From: Pseudomonadota bacterium
Lineage (GTDB): Bacteria; Pseudomonadota; Alphaproteobacteria; Caulobacterales; Parvularculaceae
Direction of reading: 5' to 3'
Assembly (NCBI GenBank): GCA_039183635.1
Contig: JBCDBL010000002.1
Coordinates: 802-64,801, forward strand
DNA length: 64,000 nucleotides
Part shown: piece by piece, positions 5,562-38,482 of the stretch
How positions within the stretch are numbered: the first letter of the stretch is position 1
How the letters are laid out: each line of letters begins with the position of its first letter
The notes under the pieces: generated by a model
The model's input: the letters and a program-made list of their open reading frames with translations, nothing else
Database searches by the model: none
What the model was told of the DNA's origin: nothing
Translations under genes and position numbers: made by a program

Positions 5562-6971
5562 ATGCTTGGTATTGATCAGAACAACCCCGAATTGTGCGGC
5601 CTGTCCTGGGCGACGAAAGTCATCTGTTCCGGCGTTTTCATCACCGGCCGGGACCCGAAGGAAATTCTGACTTCAAGCTGTATTTGGATGGCCGCGTCGG
5701 ACCACATGGTCAAGCAGGCGATAGACAAAGGCGACCCATCGGCGCTTTTAGAGCTTCCCGTCGAAATCGACGTCGACCATGATACGAAAACCGTACAGCT
5801 TTCCTTAAACGGAAAAAAAGCATGGGCGCGCTATTTCGGCGACCAGGGTACGGTTATATTGCCGTCCCCCGACGCCGAAATCGCCTTTACGCCGAAGCCC
5901 GTGCCAGTCTCAGCAAAAGACGACAATCTGTGGGGCGCGCCAGGCGAGACCGGGGACGCAGGGCGAACGGGATGCGACCCGGAAAAGCTTAACGCCGCGG
6001 CGGACCTGCTGTTTGAAAATGATCTTCAGTTTACGAACGCCTTTCTTGTTATCCATAAGGGGGAGCTGCTGATCGAGCGCTATCGCGCGCCATTTAACGC
6101 CAAAACGCAATTCGAGTCCTGGTCCATGGGCAAAAGCATCGCCTCCACCCTTGTCGGCGTCGCCTGCCAGCGGGGAGATCTCAGCCTTGACGAGGCGGAC
6201 CTATTCGCTGAATGGCGCGGTGCGGACGACCCCAGGCGGGACATCAAAGTGCGGAACATCGTCAACATGGCGAGCGGTCTTGAATTTTTAGGAAGCTACG
6301 GCGTTGAAGAGGATCACTCGGTCAAATCCATCGACGGGCGCTTTCTCGACCATATTTATGTCTATGGCGGGGGCGTCGATTCCTATACGTTCTGCATCGA
6401 CAAACCGTTGCAAGACCCGCCGGGAACGGCCGGGCGGTATCGCAATTGCGATCCGCTTCTGGCGACAGCCTTGGTGCGCCAAAGGTCCGCTGGCGGAGAC
6501 ATCCAAGACTTTCTCACCTGGCCGCAAAAACACCTTTTCGACAAGCTTGGCATGACCGGAATGGTGTTGGAGACAGACCCCTACGGACATTTCCTGATTT
6601 CAGGCCACGATTACGGTCGCGCGCGAGATTGGGGGCGCCTCGGCCTGCTCTACGCACAGCGCGGCGCCTGGGGCCGTGAACAAATTATCCCTGAGGCCCA
6701 TGTTGATTTCGTCAGCACCCCCGCAAAAGAAGCCTGGGCGCATAATCCATATTATGGCGGCTTCTTCTACACCAACGCAACGAACCTCACTCCTGCGTTG
6801 CCGAAGGACGCTTATTTCATGAGCGGCGGCGGGAAGCAACGGGTCACCATCGTGCCGTCCCTCGACCTTGTCATGGTGCGTCTCGGCCATATGGCGGGAC
6901 AAATTTTCGGCCTTTTGGAAACCATGGACGACGCAAACAAGATGATTGTCGAAGCTATGCCGCGCGCCTGA
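5562..6971 (+). CDS. Beta-lactamase-fold (S12) serine hydrolase, paralog B
   Basis: Starts 4 nt after the propeller gene stop. SxxK in SWSMGKSIASTLVG. Collinear similarity to 1311..2759 over the whole length. Confidence 0.85.
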   Translation: MLGIDQNNPELCGLSWATKVICSGVFITGRDPKEILTSSCIWMAASDHMVKQAIDKGDPSALLELPVEIDVDHDTKTVQLSLNGKKAWARYFGDQGTVILPSPDAEIAFTPKPVPVSAKDDNLWGAPGETGDAGRTGCDPEKLNAAADLLFENDLQFTNAFLVIHKGELLIERYRAPFNAKTQFESWSMGKSIASTLVGVACQRGDLSLDEADLFAEWRGADDPRRDIKVRNIVNMASGLEFLGSYGVEEDHSVKSIDGRFLDHIYVYGGGVDSYTFCIDKPLQDPPGTAGRYRNCDPLLATALVRQRSAGGDIQDFLTWPQKHLFDKLGMTGMVLETDPYGHFLISGHDYGRARDWGRLGLLYAQRGAWGREQIIPEAHVDFVSTPAKEAWAHNPYYGGFFYTNATNLTPALPKDAYFMSGGGKQRVTIVPSLDLVMVRLGHMAGQIFGLLETMDDANKMIVEAMPRA

Positions 6972-7989
6972 GCGACATGGACAAAACGTACAGCGCCGCC
7001 AGCACCAGAAGCGCACCGAGATAACTGCCCAAAGTGGGCCAAGGCTCTGCGAAGGTCAAAGACAAAACTGCGGAGGCTGCAACGCCGGACAAAAGGCTGG
7101 CACCCCGGTTGACCGGTATGGCGAACGTGTTCTCTCTGGCGTCGAGATAGATCAACGTTCCAAACGTCAGCACCCCCCCGTAAAAAACGCCGATCAACAG
7201 CAATAACGGCCCGGAGGCTGAAAAAATAAGGGCGACGCCCTGGCGTATGTCAGTTCCGACAGAGAACGGCGCGAAGGCGAGTGCGCAGGTGACGAGAACA
7301 AGACACCCCAGGGATACGACCTGTTCGTCCGCGAAGTATTGAGCCCGTAACCCCGGCGCATGCGTTTTGGCGTAGCGCGTCATCAGTGTGAGGCGCAAAG
7401 CATAGGCGGCGAGATAGACGCCTAAATTGGCGATGGCGCCGAGCGACAAGGCGCCGTCGCGGGCGCCGAAAACACCGACCGCAACCGCTAGCACGCTGAG
7501 ACACAATGCCGCCAGAGCCTGGCCGGAGATCGCCCGCGCCTCCCTGCGATCGACAATCGGGGCAAGAAGCAAAACGCCGCCGCGCATTAACAAGAGCGCA
7601 AGCAGAACAGATACGCCCTCAAAAGCGTAGGCGAATGTCGTCGTACCGATGATGGCGGCTGTCGCCACGCCGGATAGCAGAACGGGACCGGAAAACAAGC
7701 CGCTCTTGCGCCCACCGTCCCCGAGCGCAGCGGCCCGCTTCCGCATACGCCATATGACCGCTGGCAATATCAGCAACAGCCCAAGCGTCAATCCAGGCAA
7801 CAGGGCCAATCGCGCCGGAGCATCAGTCAAATACCCGCCGGACACCGCCTTCACGTATCCGCCGTAAATCGCATAGATAGCGAAATAGCCCAGGGCAAAC
7901 ACCCAAATAGGCGTTTGACGCCATTGGGGGTTCGGCGCTTGGGTCGTTACGGAAGGCGCTTTATTCAATTGCAGGGCGCACTTGTACAT
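6955..7989 (-). CDS. Integral membrane protein, about 10 TM, possibly DMT/EamA-like
   Basis: 344-aa highly hydrophobic ORF. Its 3' end overlaps the convergent hydrolase gene by 17 nt. The family call is tentative. Confidence 0.6.
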   Translation of the reverse strand: MYKCALQLNKAPSVTTQAPNPQWRQTPIWVFALGYFAIYAIYGGYVKAVSGGYLTDAPARLALLPGLTLGLLLILPAVIWRMRKRAAALGDGGRKSGLFSGPVLLSGVATAAIIGTTTFAYAFEGVSVLLALLLMRGGVLLLAPIVDRREARAISGQALAALCLSVLAVAVGVFGARDGALSLGAIANLGVYLAAYALRLTLMTRYAKTHAPGLRAQYFADEQVVSLGCLVLVTCALAFAPFSVGTDIRQGVALIFSASGPLLLLIGVFYGGVLTFGTLIYLDARENTFAIPVNRGASLLSGVAASAVLSLTFAEPWPTLGSYLGALLVLAALYVLSMSLRRAA

Positions 7990-8021
7990 GCAGCCATTTG
8001 AATCTCAAGAAGATATATGTC

Positions 8022-8047
8022 AAAGGCCCCGCATGAAAGCGGGGCCT
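8022..8047 (-). terminator. Rho-independent-type terminator after the TonB-dependent receptor gene
   Basis: GGCCCCGC / GCGGGGCC 8-bp GC stem (8025-8032 and 8039-8046) with a 6-nt loop. It is followed on the minus strand by TTTG and lies about 25 nt downstream of the stop at 8069. Confidence 0.55.
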
Positions 8048-8068
8048 GTCTCTTTGAAAGCGCAGCGG

Positions 8069-10489
8069 CTACATGTTTAAGGAGATGCCGACGCCGAACA
8101 CTTGCGGTTCGCCTACAATGACATTGCCGCCGAGCGCATCGCCGTTCACGAGGTACACCTCGTCGAAAATGTTCGAACCGAACGCGAAGACGGAATAGTT
8201 ATCTTGTTCATAGGCGATGCGCAGATTTGAAATGGTGCGCGTATCGTTCGCCGGGCCTGTCAGATCGGGGTTTGGCAAAAACGCCTGGCTCTCAGATTGA
8301 AAATTCATATCGTAAGTTGCCGTGAAACCCGAAGGATGGCTCCAGGTCGCGCCCAACGTTGCTGTTACCGTTGGCGCAAACGGGAATTCATCACCTGTAA
8401 GATCACCAGCCTCCGTTACTTCGGTACTCAACAAACCGATTGATGCAAACAGATCCAAACTGTCGGAAACAAGATAAGAACCTTGGAATTCAACGCCGAA
8501 CAACTCGCTTTCACCGGCGTTAATCACGATTGTGTCCTGGGGTGTCGGCGTCACTTGTACTTCAAGTTGCTGGTCGGACCAATCGATATAGAACGCGTTT
8601 GCATTAAATATAACTTTACCGTCACGGCTCGCAGCCCTGAGAGCAAGTTCATAGTTCCAGGAAAATTCCGGATCAAACGCATAAATAATTTGCTGGACAG
8701 GGTTTATACCGAGCCCGCCGGGCCTGTAAGCGCGCTGAGCGCTGAACGATGTAGAGATTTCGTCAGACCACCGATACGTCGATACGAATTTCGGAAGGAA
8801 CACATCGAACGTGTCGCTTTGGTTCAGTGCAATAGGCGTTAACGGATCATCAGTACCGAAAGCGACTGTAATAGCTGTAAATGCGGCCCCTGGATAAGCC
8901 GCAGCGATTCCCGGCGTAGCCACAGCGCTTGCGGTCGCAGCATCGCTTGCACCAATTAACGGCGTTAAGTCCGTAACAAGAGCCGACTCAATCGCAGCTT
9001 CTAAACCCGGGACGCCCGTCGTCACAGCAGCGAGATCGCTTGCCTCTAATAGTATATTCACCTGGCTTGCGGTGTAATCTGCTTCTTCCTGCTCCCACCG
9101 AAATCCGAACGTCAAGGTTAGTGGATCAATGACATCATAGGCGAACTCGCCGAAGACCGCATAAGTTGTGAATTCAGGTTCGAATGTAAAATCAGACGCA
9201 AGCGGAAGAAAGCTTCCAAGCAGTAAAGGGTCAGCCAAGTTGTTCGGCGCACTCGCAGGAATGGGAATAGACGCAGCCCCACTGGTGGCGGCGTCCGTTT
9301 CATTAAGATAAACAGTGTTAAGGCCGAAAAGCGCCAAAGGAAGCGCCGGGACGCCAAAGGTTTGCCGCACACGGCTTATATCGTCTGATCCACGCTTCGC
9401 CGCCAATGCCCCAAATAAGGCTGTGAAATTGTCGTCATTGTCATAAACAAAGCGAATTTCCTGCAGAAAATCATCGCCTTCGCGCATATCTCGGCGGATG
9501 GAGGTTTCAGGCAAGCTCGGATCGGCAGGCAAACCGTCAAAATCGCCCACCTCTTCTGTCTCATATTTAGTATAACTGGTCTGCGAAATAATGCTGAGGT
9601 TGTCCGTAATATCGTAGGAAATCTCACTGCTGAACGCCATCAACTCGCGATCCGTCTCCGCCAGAACATCCGCCAGCTGCAGACGCGCATCCGGATTGGC
9701 GCCGTCGACGATGACACTGCCGTCTTCTTCGTCCGTATAGATACCGGTGAGTTTCACCTCAAGGCCTGGAAGCGCGTCGGGCGTGAATAACAACTTGCCG
9801 CGTAGTAAGGTGCTTGCCTCTTCATCACCGTTCAAACCGTCGGCTCGCGTTACGAAGCCGTCGCTCTCCAAACGCTGTGCTGCGATACGAAACGCCAGTT
9901 GGTCGTCAAGGATCGGTCCGCCGAAGGCCACAGACGTCTCCCAGGTGTTTTCAGAAGCGTAGGTCGCCCGCGCACGCGCATCCCAATCAAAAGTAGGATC
10001 TTCTGTCCGCACAACGATGGAGCCGATAAGTGAGTTCCGTCCCTGGACGGTGGATTGCGCGCCACGCAAAACCTCGAATTGCCGGACGTCCCAGCCGTTA
10101 GAGATGGCTGCGCCTACTGTCTGGTTTGGAATTACCGCACCGTCCACATAAAGCGTCGCCACGGGCGTCCCTGTACCCCCGGTAACACCTTGAGACTGCA
10201 CGCCGCGCAACACGAACTGATCATTTCTTCCACTGCCGACGGAGACGAAGCCCGCGTTGCCGATGCGGCGCAGCACGTCTTCCAGATCGACAATGTTCAG
10301 CTTCTCAATGTCCGCAGCGGTTGTGACCTGAATACTTGTCGTCGTTTCTTGAATAGACCGGTCGATTTTTTCACCGGTGACGACAATCGTTTCGTATTCG
10401 AGCCTGTCGTCATCCTGGGCGACCGCCGCCCCTGCCGTTAACGCCGCCAGAGCTGTTGTGGTGAAAAGCGAATGTAATACGCCGCGCAT
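8069..10489 (-). CDS. TonB-dependent outer-membrane receptor
   Basis: Signal peptide ending AGAAVAQ. Plug region ETIVVTGEKIDRSIQETTTSIQV...FVLRGVQS. 806-aa product with a beta-strand-rich barrel. Confidence 0.9.
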   Translation of the reverse strand: MRGVLHSLFTTTALAALTAGAAVAQDDDRLEYETIVVTGEKIDRSIQETTTSIQVTTAADIEKLNIVDLEDVLRRIGNAGFVSVGSGRNDQFVLRGVQSQGVTGGTGTPVATLYVDGAVIPNQTVGAAISNGWDVRQFEVLRGAQSTVQGRNSLIGSIVVRTEDPTFDWDARARATYASENTWETSVAFGGPILDDQLAFRIAAQRLESDGFVTRADGLNGDEEASTLLRGKLLFTPDALPGLEVKLTGIYTDEEDGSVIVDGANPDARLQLADVLAETDRELMAFSSEISYDITDNLSIISQTSYTKYETEEVGDFDGLPADPSLPETSIRRDMREGDDFLQEIRFVYDNDDNFTALFGALAAKRGSDDISRVRQTFGVPALPLALFGLNTVYLNETDAATSGAASIPIPASAPNNLADPLLLGSFLPLASDFTFEPEFTTYAVFGEFAYDVIDPLTLTFGFRWEQEEADYTASQVNILLEASDLAAVTTGVPGLEAAIESALVTDLTPLIGASDAATASAVATPGIAAAYPGAAFTAITVAFGTDDPLTPIALNQSDTFDVFLPKFVSTYRWSDEISTSFSAQRAYRPGGLGINPVQQIIYAFDPEFSWNYELALRAASRDGKVIFNANAFYIDWSDQQLEVQVTPTPQDTIVINAGESELFGVEFQGSYLVSDSLDLFASIGLLSTEVTEAGDLTGDEFPFAPTVTATLGATWSHPSGFTATYDMNFQSESQAFLPNPDLTGPANDTRTISNLRIAYEQDNYSVFAFGSNIFDEVYLVNGDALGGNVIVGEPQVFGVGISLNM

Positions 10490-33110: not shown

Positions 33111-35450
33111 TCAACGCCACCGCTTTTGCAATGTCCGCCCAATCATCGCAAAAAACCAAACGGACAAAGCTCCCGTACCTAAGGTGCAAATAGCGACCCA
33201 AGCCGCGACTGCGCCGATCTTCGCCTCGACAGCGGCAAACGCCATAAAACACAGCGTCGCCGGCGCAGCCAGATAACCGACGAGAAAGGCTATAAAAGGC
33301 TGCAATACCAAGGCGCGATCCGCCCCGGCCTCTTGTATGACACGCTTTGGAACGCTGGAACGCGATAAACTGGCTATGATCCAGGGATAGACCGCTCTGT
33401 CGGCGGCGCGCCCGTCGGGCATAATCGCCGGCAGGAGAGAAAGATCCGACCATAGCCTTAGTACGAAGACATGGAAGTACATGAAAAAACTGAAAATCAG
33501 CACGGGGAAAATTGCGAAGAACTGTCCGACCGTGATCACCAAATTCAGCCATGGCAACGGACTGACTTTATCAAGGCGACTTGTTTGCTCAACAGCATCA
33601 GCCGCGTCTCCTGGGAAAGCGATATTGAATGTCACGATGCAGGCGAACGCCAAAAGCAGCCCCAAGACCAGGAACATTCTTTGCCCATGCCGCGATATGT
33701 TTTCGATGGACGCTCTGATATCATTCAGATCAAGCGTGTCGGGAAGGATGACCCCTGAAAGATTAAGTCCCGAAAAATCGTTCAGCGTCAAACCTGTCGA
33801 CTCATCAAAGTTTGCATAACTTATCGTTTTGGCGTCACGTATGTTGTTCACAGCGCCATTGAACTGCGCCTCGACAAAAGTCGCGCCCTTCAAATCAGAC
33901 CCCGCAAACGATACGCCGTCAAACTGGCTTTCGGAAAAATCGGCCGCTTCCTTCTTCTTTTCAGCCTCACTCTCGATAAAAGCGACGTTATGAAAATTGG
34001 TGTAGGCCACAATCATTTTTGAAAATTCAACGCCGTTGGCTTTGCCGCCCTCTATGATGGAGTAATGAAGCGAGCCGTCATGGAAGCGCGCGCCGTCAAA
34101 ATCGACCTTCTTGATGAATGTATCTATGATTTTGGGCGCATCGAATTGCACATCGGATGCATTGAACACTTTCAATTTGCAATTGGCTATAGAGAAGGAC
34201 GGCTCATTGCCAAGGGCCCTGTCCACAGGACCAAAGTAGGTAAAGGTCTCCTCCAAATAGCGGCTGACGGCATCATTTTTTTCTTTGTTTTTAGTTTCGG
34301 TCGTCGCACCCCGGCCGACCGGCCTGTTCGGCGACGCCAAAACCGTGGAGAATTTCTGGAAAACCGCCCAATCGAAATTCGTATTGAAAAATAAAAGGTT
34401 TCGTACCGTTCCGTAAAAGCTAAACCGCTTAATGTGTGAATCGTTGACGCGAAAATCACGCACAGCCGTGCCGCGTTCCAACGGCCCCGGATAAACATAA
34501 TCTCTTTCAAACCGCATTGTTCGAAACTTAGACCACCGAACATAAAACGAGTTGTATACTGTATTCTTACAGGAAAAGACGTAAACTTCCGACTGTGTAA
34601 AGTCCTCTAATTCTCCCTTTGTGGGGTAATACCTAAATTGAAAGTTATCATTGTCGTCTTTCACAAAACATCCTGGCTCGAACCAAATGTCTGCGACCAG
34701 GCTACTCCCGATATGAAACGTGTGTATAATCGCGCAATATATGTCGACAACATTTGTAACGTGGCAGTTAACGATGTGTAAATCGTGTGCAACAGGCCGC
34801 ACCATAATGCCGTTAGGCGTTTCGACTGTCGCTTTGACATCCTTATCAAAAAAATCATTATTGAACTCATCGGGATATATATCCGAGAGCGGTTTATCGA
34901 AGCGCCTCAGGATTTTAGATAACTGCGCATCGTCTTTAAACGCATTGGCCGGCAATATTGGCTTGAGCACCAACCAGCGAATTATACATTGGTCGAATGA
35001 CACTCTGTACAGCAGACAACCGAAAAAATCCAAACTATAGAATTCACACCGTACAAACCTGACATTTTTAACCGATGAACAAAGAAAAGATGCGTAATCG
35101 AACCGGCAATTTATAAAGTGGGCGCCCTCCAAGGAAACGCCGGTCAAACCTTCGTCGGACGCGTCGACAATATCTCGATCCTTAAATTCAATAATCTCGT
35201 CGCCGCTGCGATTTTCTAATTCAGCAATGACGTCGTCCCAACTCGTTTCCTGCCTATTTTCGTCTTGCGCATCAGGCAGGCCAACTCTTTCTGTCGTAAT
35301 TGGATCTACTTGAATATCTGCATAGCGCGCGCCGGTCCGCCCTTTACGGCGAATGGGCGTGTCAAAAAAACTTTGAGAAGGCGCAACGCCTCCCCCGCGC
35401 GCGCCGGAAAAAACATTTAAGAAACGCACTTTAGCCCCCACGTATCCCAA
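33111..35450 (-). CDS. Large pentapeptide-repeat protein with a C-terminal 5-6 TM domain
   Basis: Pentapeptide register with every fifth residue L/F in GVSLE GAHFI NCRFD YASFL CSSVK NVRFV RCEFY SLDFF, and again in FSESQ FDGVS FAGSD LKGAT FVEAQ FNGAV. Hydrophobic helices occupy the last roughly 190 aa. The first in-frame ATG codes for Met216, so the start (TTG 35450 or a downstream GTG/TTG) is uncertain. The repeat-encoding part is visibly AT-richer than its neighbours. Confidence 0.75.
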   Translation of the reverse strand: MGYVGAKVRFLNVFSGARGGGVAPSQSFFDTPIRRKGRTGARYADIQVDPITTERVGLPDAQDENRQETSWDDVIAELENRSGDEIIEFKDRDIVDASDEGLTGVSLEGAHFINCRFDYASFLCSSVKNVRFVRCEFYSLDFFGCLLYRVSFDQCIIRWLVLKPILPANAFKDDAQLSKILRRFDKPLSDIYPDEFNNDFFDKDVKATVETPNGIMVRPVAHDLHIVNCHVTNVVDIYCAIIHTFHIGSSLVADIWFEPGCFVKDDNDNFQFRYYPTKGELEDFTQSEVYVFSCKNTVYNSFYVRWSKFRTMRFERDYVYPGPLERGTAVRDFRVNDSHIKRFSFYGTVRNLLFFNTNFDWAVFQKFSTVLASPNRPVGRGATTETKNKEKNDAVSRYLEETFTYFGPVDRALGNEPSFSIANCKLKVFNASDVQFDAPKIIDTFIKKVDFDGARFHDGSLHYSIIEGGKANGVEFSKMIVAYTNFHNVAFIESEAEKKKEAADFSESQFDGVSFAGSDLKGATFVEAQFNGAVNNIRDAKTISYANFDESTGLTLNDFSGLNLSGVILPDTLDLNDIRASIENISRHGQRMFLVLGLLLAFACIVTFNIAFPGDAADAVEQTSRLDKVSPLPWLNLVITVGQFFAIFPVLIFSFFMYFHVFVLRLWSDLSLLPAIMPDGRAADRAVYPWIIASLSRSSVPKRVIQEAGADRALVLQPFIAFLVGYLAAPATLCFMAFAAVEAKIGAVAAWVAICTLGTGALSVWFFAMIGRTLQKRWR

Positions 35451-35629
35451 GTATGTTCATAAGGTAAAGTATAGGCTCCGATTTACCAATATTTTTCTTG
35501 CCGCCGGTCGAGGCGACCGGTGCTGCGAAGCAACGCACGTCGAGTGTTAAGCAGTCGGCGCTTTGCCTGGCGCATGGGTCACCGCCAAACGGCTTTGCAC
35601 CCCGCCTTGCGCCCACGACGCCAGAGCCG

Positions 35630-36109
35630 TCACAACGTCTCCTGGCACGGCGCGCAATAGCCCGATAATTCAACAACCCTGTGTCTGACGGCAAAGCCAA
35701 GGCGTTTTGCATCCTCGTTGATGAGGCGCTCAACATTCGGGTTCTCAATTTCCTTTGCTCCGCCACACGTCTCGCAAACGAGAAAAACACAGGCGTGATC
35801 GTGCTCGGGGCGCCGGCAGGCCACATAGGCGTTGCGACTTTCGATACGCGCCGCGACCCCCTGCTCACAAAGGAAGTCAAGGGTTCGATAAATGCTCGGG
35901 GCGGCGATCTCGCGACCGGACGCTTCCGACACCAGATCTCGCATCTCATACGCGCCGAGCGGACGCCCCGCACCCCAAAGCGCCTTCAACACCGCTATGC
36001 GCAAAGACGTCATCCGCGCGCCGCGCAAGCGGCACAAGGCGACCGCCGAATGAATATCCTTTTCACCAGAGGACCGTGCGTTTGCAGACAGATGTTTCAG
36101 ATGCGGCAT
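35630..36109 (-). CDS. zur: Fur-family zinc uptake regulator
   Basis: 159-aa product with a Fur-family layout. Two CxxC pairs (VCETCGG and GYCAPCQ). It is divergent from a COG0523 gene across a Zur-box-like operator. Confidence 0.8.
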   Translation of the reverse strand: MPHLKHLSANARSSGEKDIHSAVALCRLRGARMTSLRIAVLKALWGAGRPLGAYEMRDLVSEASGREIAAPSIYRTLDFLCEQGVAARIESRNAYVACRRPEHDHACVFLVCETCGGAKEIENPNVERLINEDAKRLGFAVRHRVVELSGYCAPCQETL

Positions 36110-36127: not shown

Positions 36128-36160
36128 TTAAATGATATATTGTTGCATTTAATGATATAA
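36128..36160. promoter_or_regulatory. Zur-box-like operator (AATGATATA repeated at 20-bp spacing; AAATG-N11-CATTT dyad)
   Basis: TTAAATGATATATTGTTGCATTTAATGATATAAAA lies in the 87-bp AT-rich zur/COG0523 divergent region. It resembles the AT-rich AATGTTAT-type half-sites of proteobacterial Zur boxes. Confidence 0.5.
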
Positions 36161-37864: not shown

Positions 37865-38482
37865 ATGCCCCCCCAGACAAGCGCCCGTCACGAACCAGCC
37901 CACCCTGTGCAAACGATCCATAAGCTGCAAGATCTCGATGCGATCTTTCATGATGAGACAGACGCCGTCATTTGGGAACGACCAACGCCCCCGTCGGTTC
38001 TGTCAGCATTGAATAATTTGCCTACACACCAAATTACAAATGGACGATTTTGCGTTCCGGCAAGCGCGGTTGGTCGCTGCGTTGCGGATACTTTCAACGC
38101 ATGGGGGTTTGATGCAGAAGATGCACGGCGATGGTTGATCGCTGATATCGAAACGCTGGCGCGCCACATGGCGCGCATTCTTTCATCTTCGAATCTTTTA
38201 ATTCGTATAGAGGTCGTACGCGATGACGCCTGCCGAAAATTTCATCGCGATACGGTCAAAGCGCGTCTCATTTGCACCTATAACGGTCCAGGAACGGAGT
38301 TTGGCGTTTCCAACGGCAACGGATGCGCCGATGACATAAAAAACGCGCCTACAGGCGGCCCCATCTTGCTGAAGGGCAAACTTTGGCCTGGATCTCCCAG
38401 CCAAACCGTCTTGCATCGCTCGCCTCCAATTGCAGGGGCAGACACATCGCGATTGGTCATCGTGCTTAATGAGGCATGTTGA
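37865..38482 (+). CDS. Conserved hypothetical protein, DUF1826-like
   Basis: 205-aa soluble product. The block FHRDTVKARLICTYNGPGTEF and the position after a COG0523 gene match my recollection of DUF1826. Unverified. Confidence 0.5.
   Translation: MPPQTSARHEPAHPVQTIHKLQDLDAIFHDETDAVIWERPTPPSVLSALNNLPTHQITNGRFCVPASAVGRCVADTFNAWGFDAEDARRWLIADIETLARHMARILSSSNLLIRIEVVRDDACRKFHRDTVKARLICTYNGPGTEFGVSNGNGCADDIKNAPTGGPILLKGKLWPGSPSQTVLHRSPPIAGADTSRLVIVLNEAC

Follow-up and report, generated by a model that had tools for sequence, protein, structure and literature searches.

The 64,000-nucleotide stretch analyzed here (the window: positions 802 to 64,801 of contig JBCDBL010000002.1, from a bacterium of the Parvularculaceae) contains, on its minus strand, a long open reading frame (ORF) for a pentapeptide-repeat protein that ends in a membrane domain. 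The maximal ORF extends without interruption from a TTG at 35450 to a stop codon at 33111-33113 (33111..35450, 779 codons); a first-pass annotation of the same DNA had called it a gene, and it does exist and is coding. A MarR gene converges on its 3′ end, and a zur gene lies upstream on the same strand. We present evidence that the C-terminal part of the protein is a divergent copy of a membrane module carried by many bacterial proteins, and that the neighboring zur gene probably tells little about its role. Residues are numbered from the TTG, and the features of the locus are collected in Table 1.

Pentapeptide repeats fold into a right-handed quadrilateral β-helix. The first-pass annotation had recognized two tracts of such repeats, and both a hidden Markov model search (residues 106-157 and ~501-535) and a scan for the repeat register recover them. 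The Pfam model PF13599 matches residues 106-157 with 47.8 bits (gathering cut-off 38), PF00805 matches residues 503-533 with 39.8 bits (cut-off 20.2), and PF13576 scores 34 bits (cut-off 27) within residues ~501-535. The register scan found 11 contiguous pentads at residues 105-159 and further runs at 434-468, 503-532 and 552-571, so that the tracts hold 40 pentads in total versus 5.4 ± 4.5 in shuffled sequence. The superfamily is defined by at least eight contiguous in-register pentads (PMC8145042), and the protein, with its Pfam scores above the gathering thresholds and a longer contiguous run than that, belongs to it. The best sequence match of tract 1 in the PDB is the AlbG/McbG-like structure 2xt4 (E=2e-4), while tract 2 corresponds to an N-terminal arm common to the family described below and closes in a conserved ...L.G..LP.. 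linker. The region between the tracts, which had been called one of unclear fold, holds three short runs of pentads (Table 1), and comparison of the family profile with residues 161-420 by hhalign gave a probability of 0.1 and thus no support for a pentapeptide fold there. A single-sequence AlphaFold model was poor (predicted local distance difference test score, pLDDT, 36.7).

In contrast, AlphaFold prediction of residues 415-779 from a 50-sequence family alignment gave a confident model (predicted template modeling score 0.73; pLDDT above 90 over most of the membrane domain). It contains four long helices, at residues 575-611, 641-670, 712-742 and 746-778, with short helices in a signature loop between the second and third. 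Hydropathy agrees with four transmembrane (TM) helices, rather than the five to six counted earlier. The protein has no signal peptide and an even number of TM helices; its TM2-TM3 loop and C-terminal tail are rich in Lys and Arg, whereas its TM1-TM2 loop is acidic. These features point to an N-in/C-in topology, in which, by the positive-inside rule, the β-helix arm, the signature loop and the C-terminus would all face the cytoplasm. The membrane domain had no match among solved structures either by profile or by a Foldseek fold search of the PDB, and none of significance among viral structures (Foldseek, BFVD); the best E values in the structure searches, 0.16 and 0.07, both fell on the repeat part. 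Nor is the domain covered by any Pfam, NCBIfam or PADLOC model.

Table 1. Features of the pentapeptide-protein locus (window coordinates)
Feature	Position	Strand	Details
zur (Fur family)	35630..36109	(-)	Pfam FUR; best NCBIfam match Zur, 105 bits, below cut-off 167
Spacer from zur stop to TTG, 179 nt, GC 0.59	35451..35629	(-)	No promoter-, terminator- or Zur-box-like match
Likely coding sequence	33111-35429	(-)	772 residues from GTG; matches database gene call, 772 residues
N-terminal tail, residues 8-57, coding status doubtful	35280..35429	(-)	GC3 0.42, GC1 0.62, GC2 0.56
Terminator-like hairpin and U-run, codons 19-29	35366..35395	(-)	9 bp (6 GC), -13.6 kcal/mol, AAAG then U7
Pentapeptide tract 1, residues 105-159, 11 pentads, Phe/Cys-rich	34974..35138	(-)	PF13599, register scan, PDB match
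Central region, residues 160-433, without relatives	34152..34973	(-)	Three 4-pentad runs: residues 235-254, 282-301, 328-347
Pentapeptide tract 2, residues 434-571	33738..34151	(-)	PF00805/PF13576 at residues 501-535, register scan, family alignment
Conserved membrane domain, residues 575-779	33114..33728	(-)	Amphipathic pre-helix; TM 589-611, 641-670, 712-742, 746-778
Signature loop TM2-TM3, residues 673-690	33381..33434	(-)	Here LPAIMPDG + 8 residues + PW; family LPAVFPDG........PW

Word-index searches of 5.8 billion proteins, with either the whole protein or residues 585-779, returned only the gene itself. Relatives surfaced only through an exhaustive HMMER search of 1.84 billion cluster representatives, which gave 1534 matches at E≤1e-3 (895 at E≤1e-10), nearly all of them to residues ~500-775. 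The best relatives score 86-116 bits at 24-36% identity, and among those representatives nothing but the gene itself exceeds 36%. The relatives are proteins of 280-1220 residues whose sole Pfam domains are pentapeptide repeats on either side of an unmodeled hydrophobic block, and the 1339 proteins recovered by a profile search are named merely "pentapeptide repeat-containing protein" or "YjbI with pentapeptide repeats". Their alignment has a constant order of parts: the last repeat coil, the ...L.G..LP... linker, an amphipathic helix, TM1, a PLP loop, TM2 ending in ...LQRLW..., the signature LPAVFPDG followed by eight residues and PW, TM3 and TM4. All 12 invariant columns of this alignment are kept in our protein, whose version of the signature is LPAIMPDG...YPW. 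Examples of the unnamed family are the proteins P0153 and P0047, from metagenome-assembled genomes (MAGs) of Desulfobacterales and Planctomycetota, respectively; our protein shares with them tract 2, the linker, the amphipathic helix, the four TM helices and the loop. Within its own class, one homologue (in genome G077) aligns with it at 107 bits over tract 2, TM1, TM2, the loop and TM3, and a query limited to the membrane domain found class members at E values from 7.7e-18 to 2.8e-5. A hand-written degenerate DNA motif scan detected the signature in at least 120 species genomes; among the matches listed, nearly all are MAGs of Acidobacteriota, Planctomycetota, Nitrospirota, Nitrospinota, Desulfobacterota, Armatimonadota, Alphaproteobacteria and Vampirovibrionia. 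Judged from these alignments, then, the protein is not an orphan: through its C-terminal ~280 residues it is part of a very large family, as the similarity of the TM domain, the shared signature loop and the invariant columns (Pro, Leu, Asp and Trp) indicate.

The protein departs from the typical family layout in lacking the second pentapeptide arm. Typical members have ~630 residues, with ~240 before the motif and a ~300-residue repeat arm after TM4. Compared with 76 complete family ORFs, our protein has 672 residues before the motif, where the median is 237 and the maximum 602-607, and 107 residues from the start of the motif to the C-terminus, where the median is 380. It is therefore an architecture outlier: its N-terminal arm is the longest observed, and the repeat arm at the C-terminus is missing. 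For the first ~430 residues we found no relatives, and in 300 genomes of the class residues 61-420 matched nothing apart from marginal hits to tract 1. On this comparison the protein is a divergent, one-armed member of a large uncharacterized family of membrane pentapeptide proteins, which either lost or never had the C-terminal arm and carries instead a unique ~430-residue N-terminal extension with a further pentapeptide tract.

One could ask whether such an outlier is a functional gene at all. It might be a decaying remnant, a family member that lost its C-terminal arm and then drifted, which would explain the unique N-terminus, the missing ATG and an odd 5′ end; the want of any relative above 36% identity and the outlying architecture would fit this view. 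The first methionine of the 779-codon ORF is indeed residue 216, as the first-pass annotation had it, so that initiation at a TTG or GTG is called for. The only in-frame starts upstream of TTG102 are TTG1, GTG4 and GTG8, and between codons 8 and 102 there is no ATG, GTG or TTG in frame. Furthermore, codons 8-57 show a pattern of GC content at the first, second and third codon positions (GC1, GC2 and GC3; Table 1) that is the reverse of that in the rest of the gene, and the GC3 of codons 1-60 falls at the 0.8th percentile. On the other side, 779 codons remain uninterrupted at 48% GC, every invariant family column is retained, the membrane domain folds confidently with the family alignment, and the pentad register is far above chance. 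The C-terminal arm is also missing in 6 of the 76 complete family ORFs. In addition, GTG8, at 35429, is preceded six bases upstream by a Shine-Dalgarno (SD)-like GGGGG, and its calculated pairing with the anti-SD sequence (-8.4 kcal/mol) is stronger than that of the other candidate starts (0.4 to -4.2 kcal/mol), which makes it the likely start. We consider decay quite unlikely and retain the view that the gene encodes a real protein.

What might the four-helix domain do? Pro, Leu, Phe, Trp and one Asp make up its invariant residues (L, P, P, D, P and W in the signature loop), with no catalytic-type set among them, and in the family alignments the TM helices have no conserved charged residues. 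A membrane anchor or assembly module therefore fits better than an enzyme or a selective channel. In the C-terminal module of ~350 residues, which well over 1000 bacterial proteins carry, a β-helix leads through the conserved linker and the amphipathic helix into the four-helix membrane domain. We propose that the domain would serve to hold rigid β-helix arms at the inner face of the inner membrane, where they could offer a docking surface for another macromolecule. The second repeat arm of typical members, lying after TM4, would also be cytoplasmic.

Known pentapeptide proteins offer several points of comparison. Qnr, MfpA and AlbG/McbG are soluble DNA mimics, dimers of ~200-residue chains without a membrane domain, and share only the repeat fold with our protein, even though an AlbG/McbG-like structure is the best PDB match to tract 1. 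The NCBIfam Qnr and MfpA models score 17.8-26.4 bits on it, below cut-offs of 240-500; with these scores, a length of 772-779 residues and four TM helices, we rejected membership of these families.

A closer parallel might be HalA, a membrane protein with a β-helix-like cytoplasmic part, which in Hailong, an anti-phage system, is the ion-channel effector (PDB 9nyi, NCBIfam NF051894). HalA is the best NCBIfam match of our protein (E=1.6e-7), and the structure 9nyi matches tract 1, and tract 1 only, at E=0.077. One hypothesis is thus that the protein is a stand-alone, HalA-type membrane-disrupting effector, in which the β-helix arm senses a phage or stress cue and an oligomeric TM pore opens. 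It is also true that one family member (L025, 1-4479) follows immediately on a type I restriction-modification system and a NERD-domain gene, a setting like that of a defence island that does not recur in the other contexts. However, HalA reaches 30.9 bits where the cut-off is 250, and does so over 49 repeat residues (108-156); neither the profile nor the model of the TM domain retrieves 9nyi, so that the TM part of HalA is unmatched, and family members match neither HalA nor any PADLOC model. Beside our gene, where marR and zur lie, there is no HalB nucleotidyltransferase, and a conserved partner is likewise missing from 120 family loci. The module was not found in phages and hardly in plasmids (see below), and the lack of conserved charged residues in the TM helices also speaks against a pore of this kind. 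We rejected HalA membership on the score, the unmatched TM part and the absence of a HalB-like partner, and we regard a HalA-type effector as rather improbable; an anchor or docking platform, as suggested by sequence conservation and predicted topology, is preferred.

To our knowledge, HglK is the only membrane-anchored pentapeptide protein with a phenotype, and we know of no mechanism or biochemical function established for it. HglK of Anabaena (Nostoc sp. PCC 7120) is a cytoplasmic-membrane protein of ~730 residues with four TM helices and a long pentapeptide domain that it needs for function (PMC8145042), and it is widespread in Cyanobacteriota (PMC12669612). The parts list is the same as that of our protein, and so is the predicted membrane; by analogy, our protein could organize envelope lipids or septal structures, as HglK does in Anabaena. 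The order of the parts, however, is reversed, HglK having its TM helices first and its repeats last. A TM-domain query taken from a Vampirovibrionia member had no match in 250 other Cyanobacteriota genomes, a comparison made through genomes and not with the HglK sequence itself, and no envelope genes recur beside family members. With TM-region homology undetected by this route, membership was rejected, and an HglK-like envelope role seems to us highly improbable. The comparisons with Qnr/MfpA and HglK drawn in the first-pass annotation are, in our reading, analogies of fold or layout only.

The genomic surroundings of the family give little guidance to function. No neighbor cluster occurs in more than five of the 120 family loci, and the seven annotated family contexts have no partner gene in common. 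A small PilZ-like gene lies upstream of three metagenome family members (L017, L024 and L026), two of which also have a gene for an Rce1-like/CPBP protease; the recurrence probably reflects the synteny of one lineage, or may be a weak functional hint. For the four-helix domain of this family there is thus neither a Pfam or NCBIfam model nor a solved structure, and no partner gene is conserved beside it. The family is spread over many, mostly uncultured, phyla. Membrane-anchored pentapeptide proteins are common and barely studied, and the family is a concrete target for domain definition and a first functional study.

We traced the phylogenetic distribution of the TM domain, which proved to be widespread across bacterial phyla and patchy within the class: of 300 other genomes searched in the class, 5 carry it, and these come from five different families. 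A search of 60 family- and order-level relatives revealed no orthologue, and the domain has no paralogue in its own genome. Among 72,556 plasmids there was one partial match, and among 50,697 phages none. The first-pass annotation had described the gene as of unknown function and acquired or fast-evolving. The absence of orthologues and the patchy distribution agree in part with that description and mark the gene as lineage-specific here, whereas the compositional argument has become weaker and the protein is no orphan.

As to composition, the ORF has a GC content of 0.484, compared with 0.573 for the genome, and lies in the bottom 3.4% of 2.3-kb windows; as noted in the first pass, the AT-rich portion is the repeat-coding part (GC 0.43-0.48), the TM-coding 3′ end being at 0.54. 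Ranked against 1620 long ORFs from this genome, it falls very low in GC1 (0.7th percentile) and low in GC2 (6.6th percentile), and less so in synonymous codon usage (8th) and GC3 (0.543; 11th). The low GC1 and GC2 follow from the abundance of Phe, Asp, Asn, Ser and Lys in the protein, so the low GC content is real and mainly an amino-acid effect. A native neighbor, the DUF1826 gene, has a lower GC3 (0.512) than the ORF. Composition is thus only moderate evidence of foreign origin: the deviation sits mainly in the first two codon positions, and the GC3 of the ORF, at the 11th percentile, is undercut by that of DUF1826. The DUF1826 gene itself (37865-38482), part of the zinc module described below, is at the 6th percentile for GC3 and has a codon usage atypical for the genome. 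Taken together, we regard lateral gain in this lineage as probable.

The position of the ORF next to zur had suggested a link to zinc status, and it merits separate consideration. The zur gene is divergent from a gene for a ZigA-type GTPase (zigA), followed by genes for a MerC-like protein and DUF1826, a module of the zinc type. The AT-rich divergent zur-zigA promoter region has two exact copies of AATGATATA, a candidate Zur operator word, at 36131 and 36151. Placed 20 bp apart (36131-36159), the two copies are likely a Zur operator. The ORF follows zur on the same strand at a distance of 179-200 nt, depending on its start; the ~180 nt of the first-pass annotation is 179 nt when measured from the TTG. 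A consensus scan of the 179-nt spacer found neither a σ70-like promoter nor a terminator-like site. One interpretation, therefore, is that the ORF is co-transcribed by read-through from an autoregulated zur gene, is induced when zinc is limiting and acts in zinc homeostasis at the membrane.

Several results argue against this interpretation. The earlier statement that no convincing terminator separates the two genes holds for the spacer; just beyond it, inside the 5′ end of the ORF, lies a terminator-like hairpin with a U-run (35395-35366), although it is not exceptional (the scan gave 7 sites versus 6.1 expected, and the fold z-score against shuffles was -0.04). No sequence within one mismatch of AATGATATA occurs in 35451-35629. 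In a synteny comparison with distant relatives, the zur-zigA block was found in one and marR beside it in none. That one relative alone keeps zur-zigA-merC-DUF1826, and after its zur come an AraC regulator and a TonB-dependent receptor in place of our gene. In this relative (L009, G005, 6211-9901), zur overlaps the AraC-family gene by 22 nt, and the receptor gene follows. No zinc genes were seen beside family members in ~127 contexts, and the ORF product has no CxxC or His-rich metal motif, with His making up 1.9% of its soluble part. Because the ORF lacks an upstream AATGATATA, the adjacency is not conserved and family members have no zinc genes nearby, the adjacency looks incidental, reflecting where the gene happened to insert and not a tie to zinc. 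We judge the zinc-linked gene to be unlikely. A combined version, in which the four-helix domain is an undescribed module (for example an oligomeric pore or a signal-transducing anchor under the control of rigid cytoplasmic β-helix arms) and this one-armed variant responds to zinc limitation through read-through from the zur promoter, seems very unlikely. For this genome, the tempting link to zinc regulation is removed as unsupported.

We think it reasonably probable, then, that this is a real gene for a stand-alone inner-membrane protein of ~772 residues, whose C-terminal ~350 residues are a divergent copy of the family module and likely an anchor, and which was gained laterally and has no zinc link. 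Several points weigh against parts of this conclusion. Codons 8-57 look non-coding by GC3 and contain the terminator-like hairpin, and, with no close homologue at hand, conservation can neither fix the start codon nor measure purifying selection. With no promoter-like site in the spacer, read-through from zur is conceivable. The proposed scaffold or anchor is drawn from residue conservation and topology, and the monomer model would also be compatible with TM domains that assemble into an oligomeric pore or channel. The compositional case for lateral gain is moderate, and a search of the flanks of the gene in the window for repeats, direct or inverted, and for tRNA or mobile genes gave nothing meaningful; with no insertion scars, vertical descent combined with rapid divergence and loss elsewhere is a possible alternative.

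Two further observations concern the 5′ end of the ORF. A 9-codon upstream ORF (35431-35460, minus strand) starts with an ATG at 35460 and stops with a TAA at 35433-35431, ending one base before the GTG at 35429. Its layout is of the translational-coupling type, and its own SD-like GGAG is 16-19 nt distant. Finally, a GC-only 11-nt word, AGCGCGCGCCG on the plus strand, occurs in three copies in the window, at 34085-34095, 35324-35334 and 35396-35406, and two of the three AGCGCGCGCCG copies flank the hairpin and U-run region.

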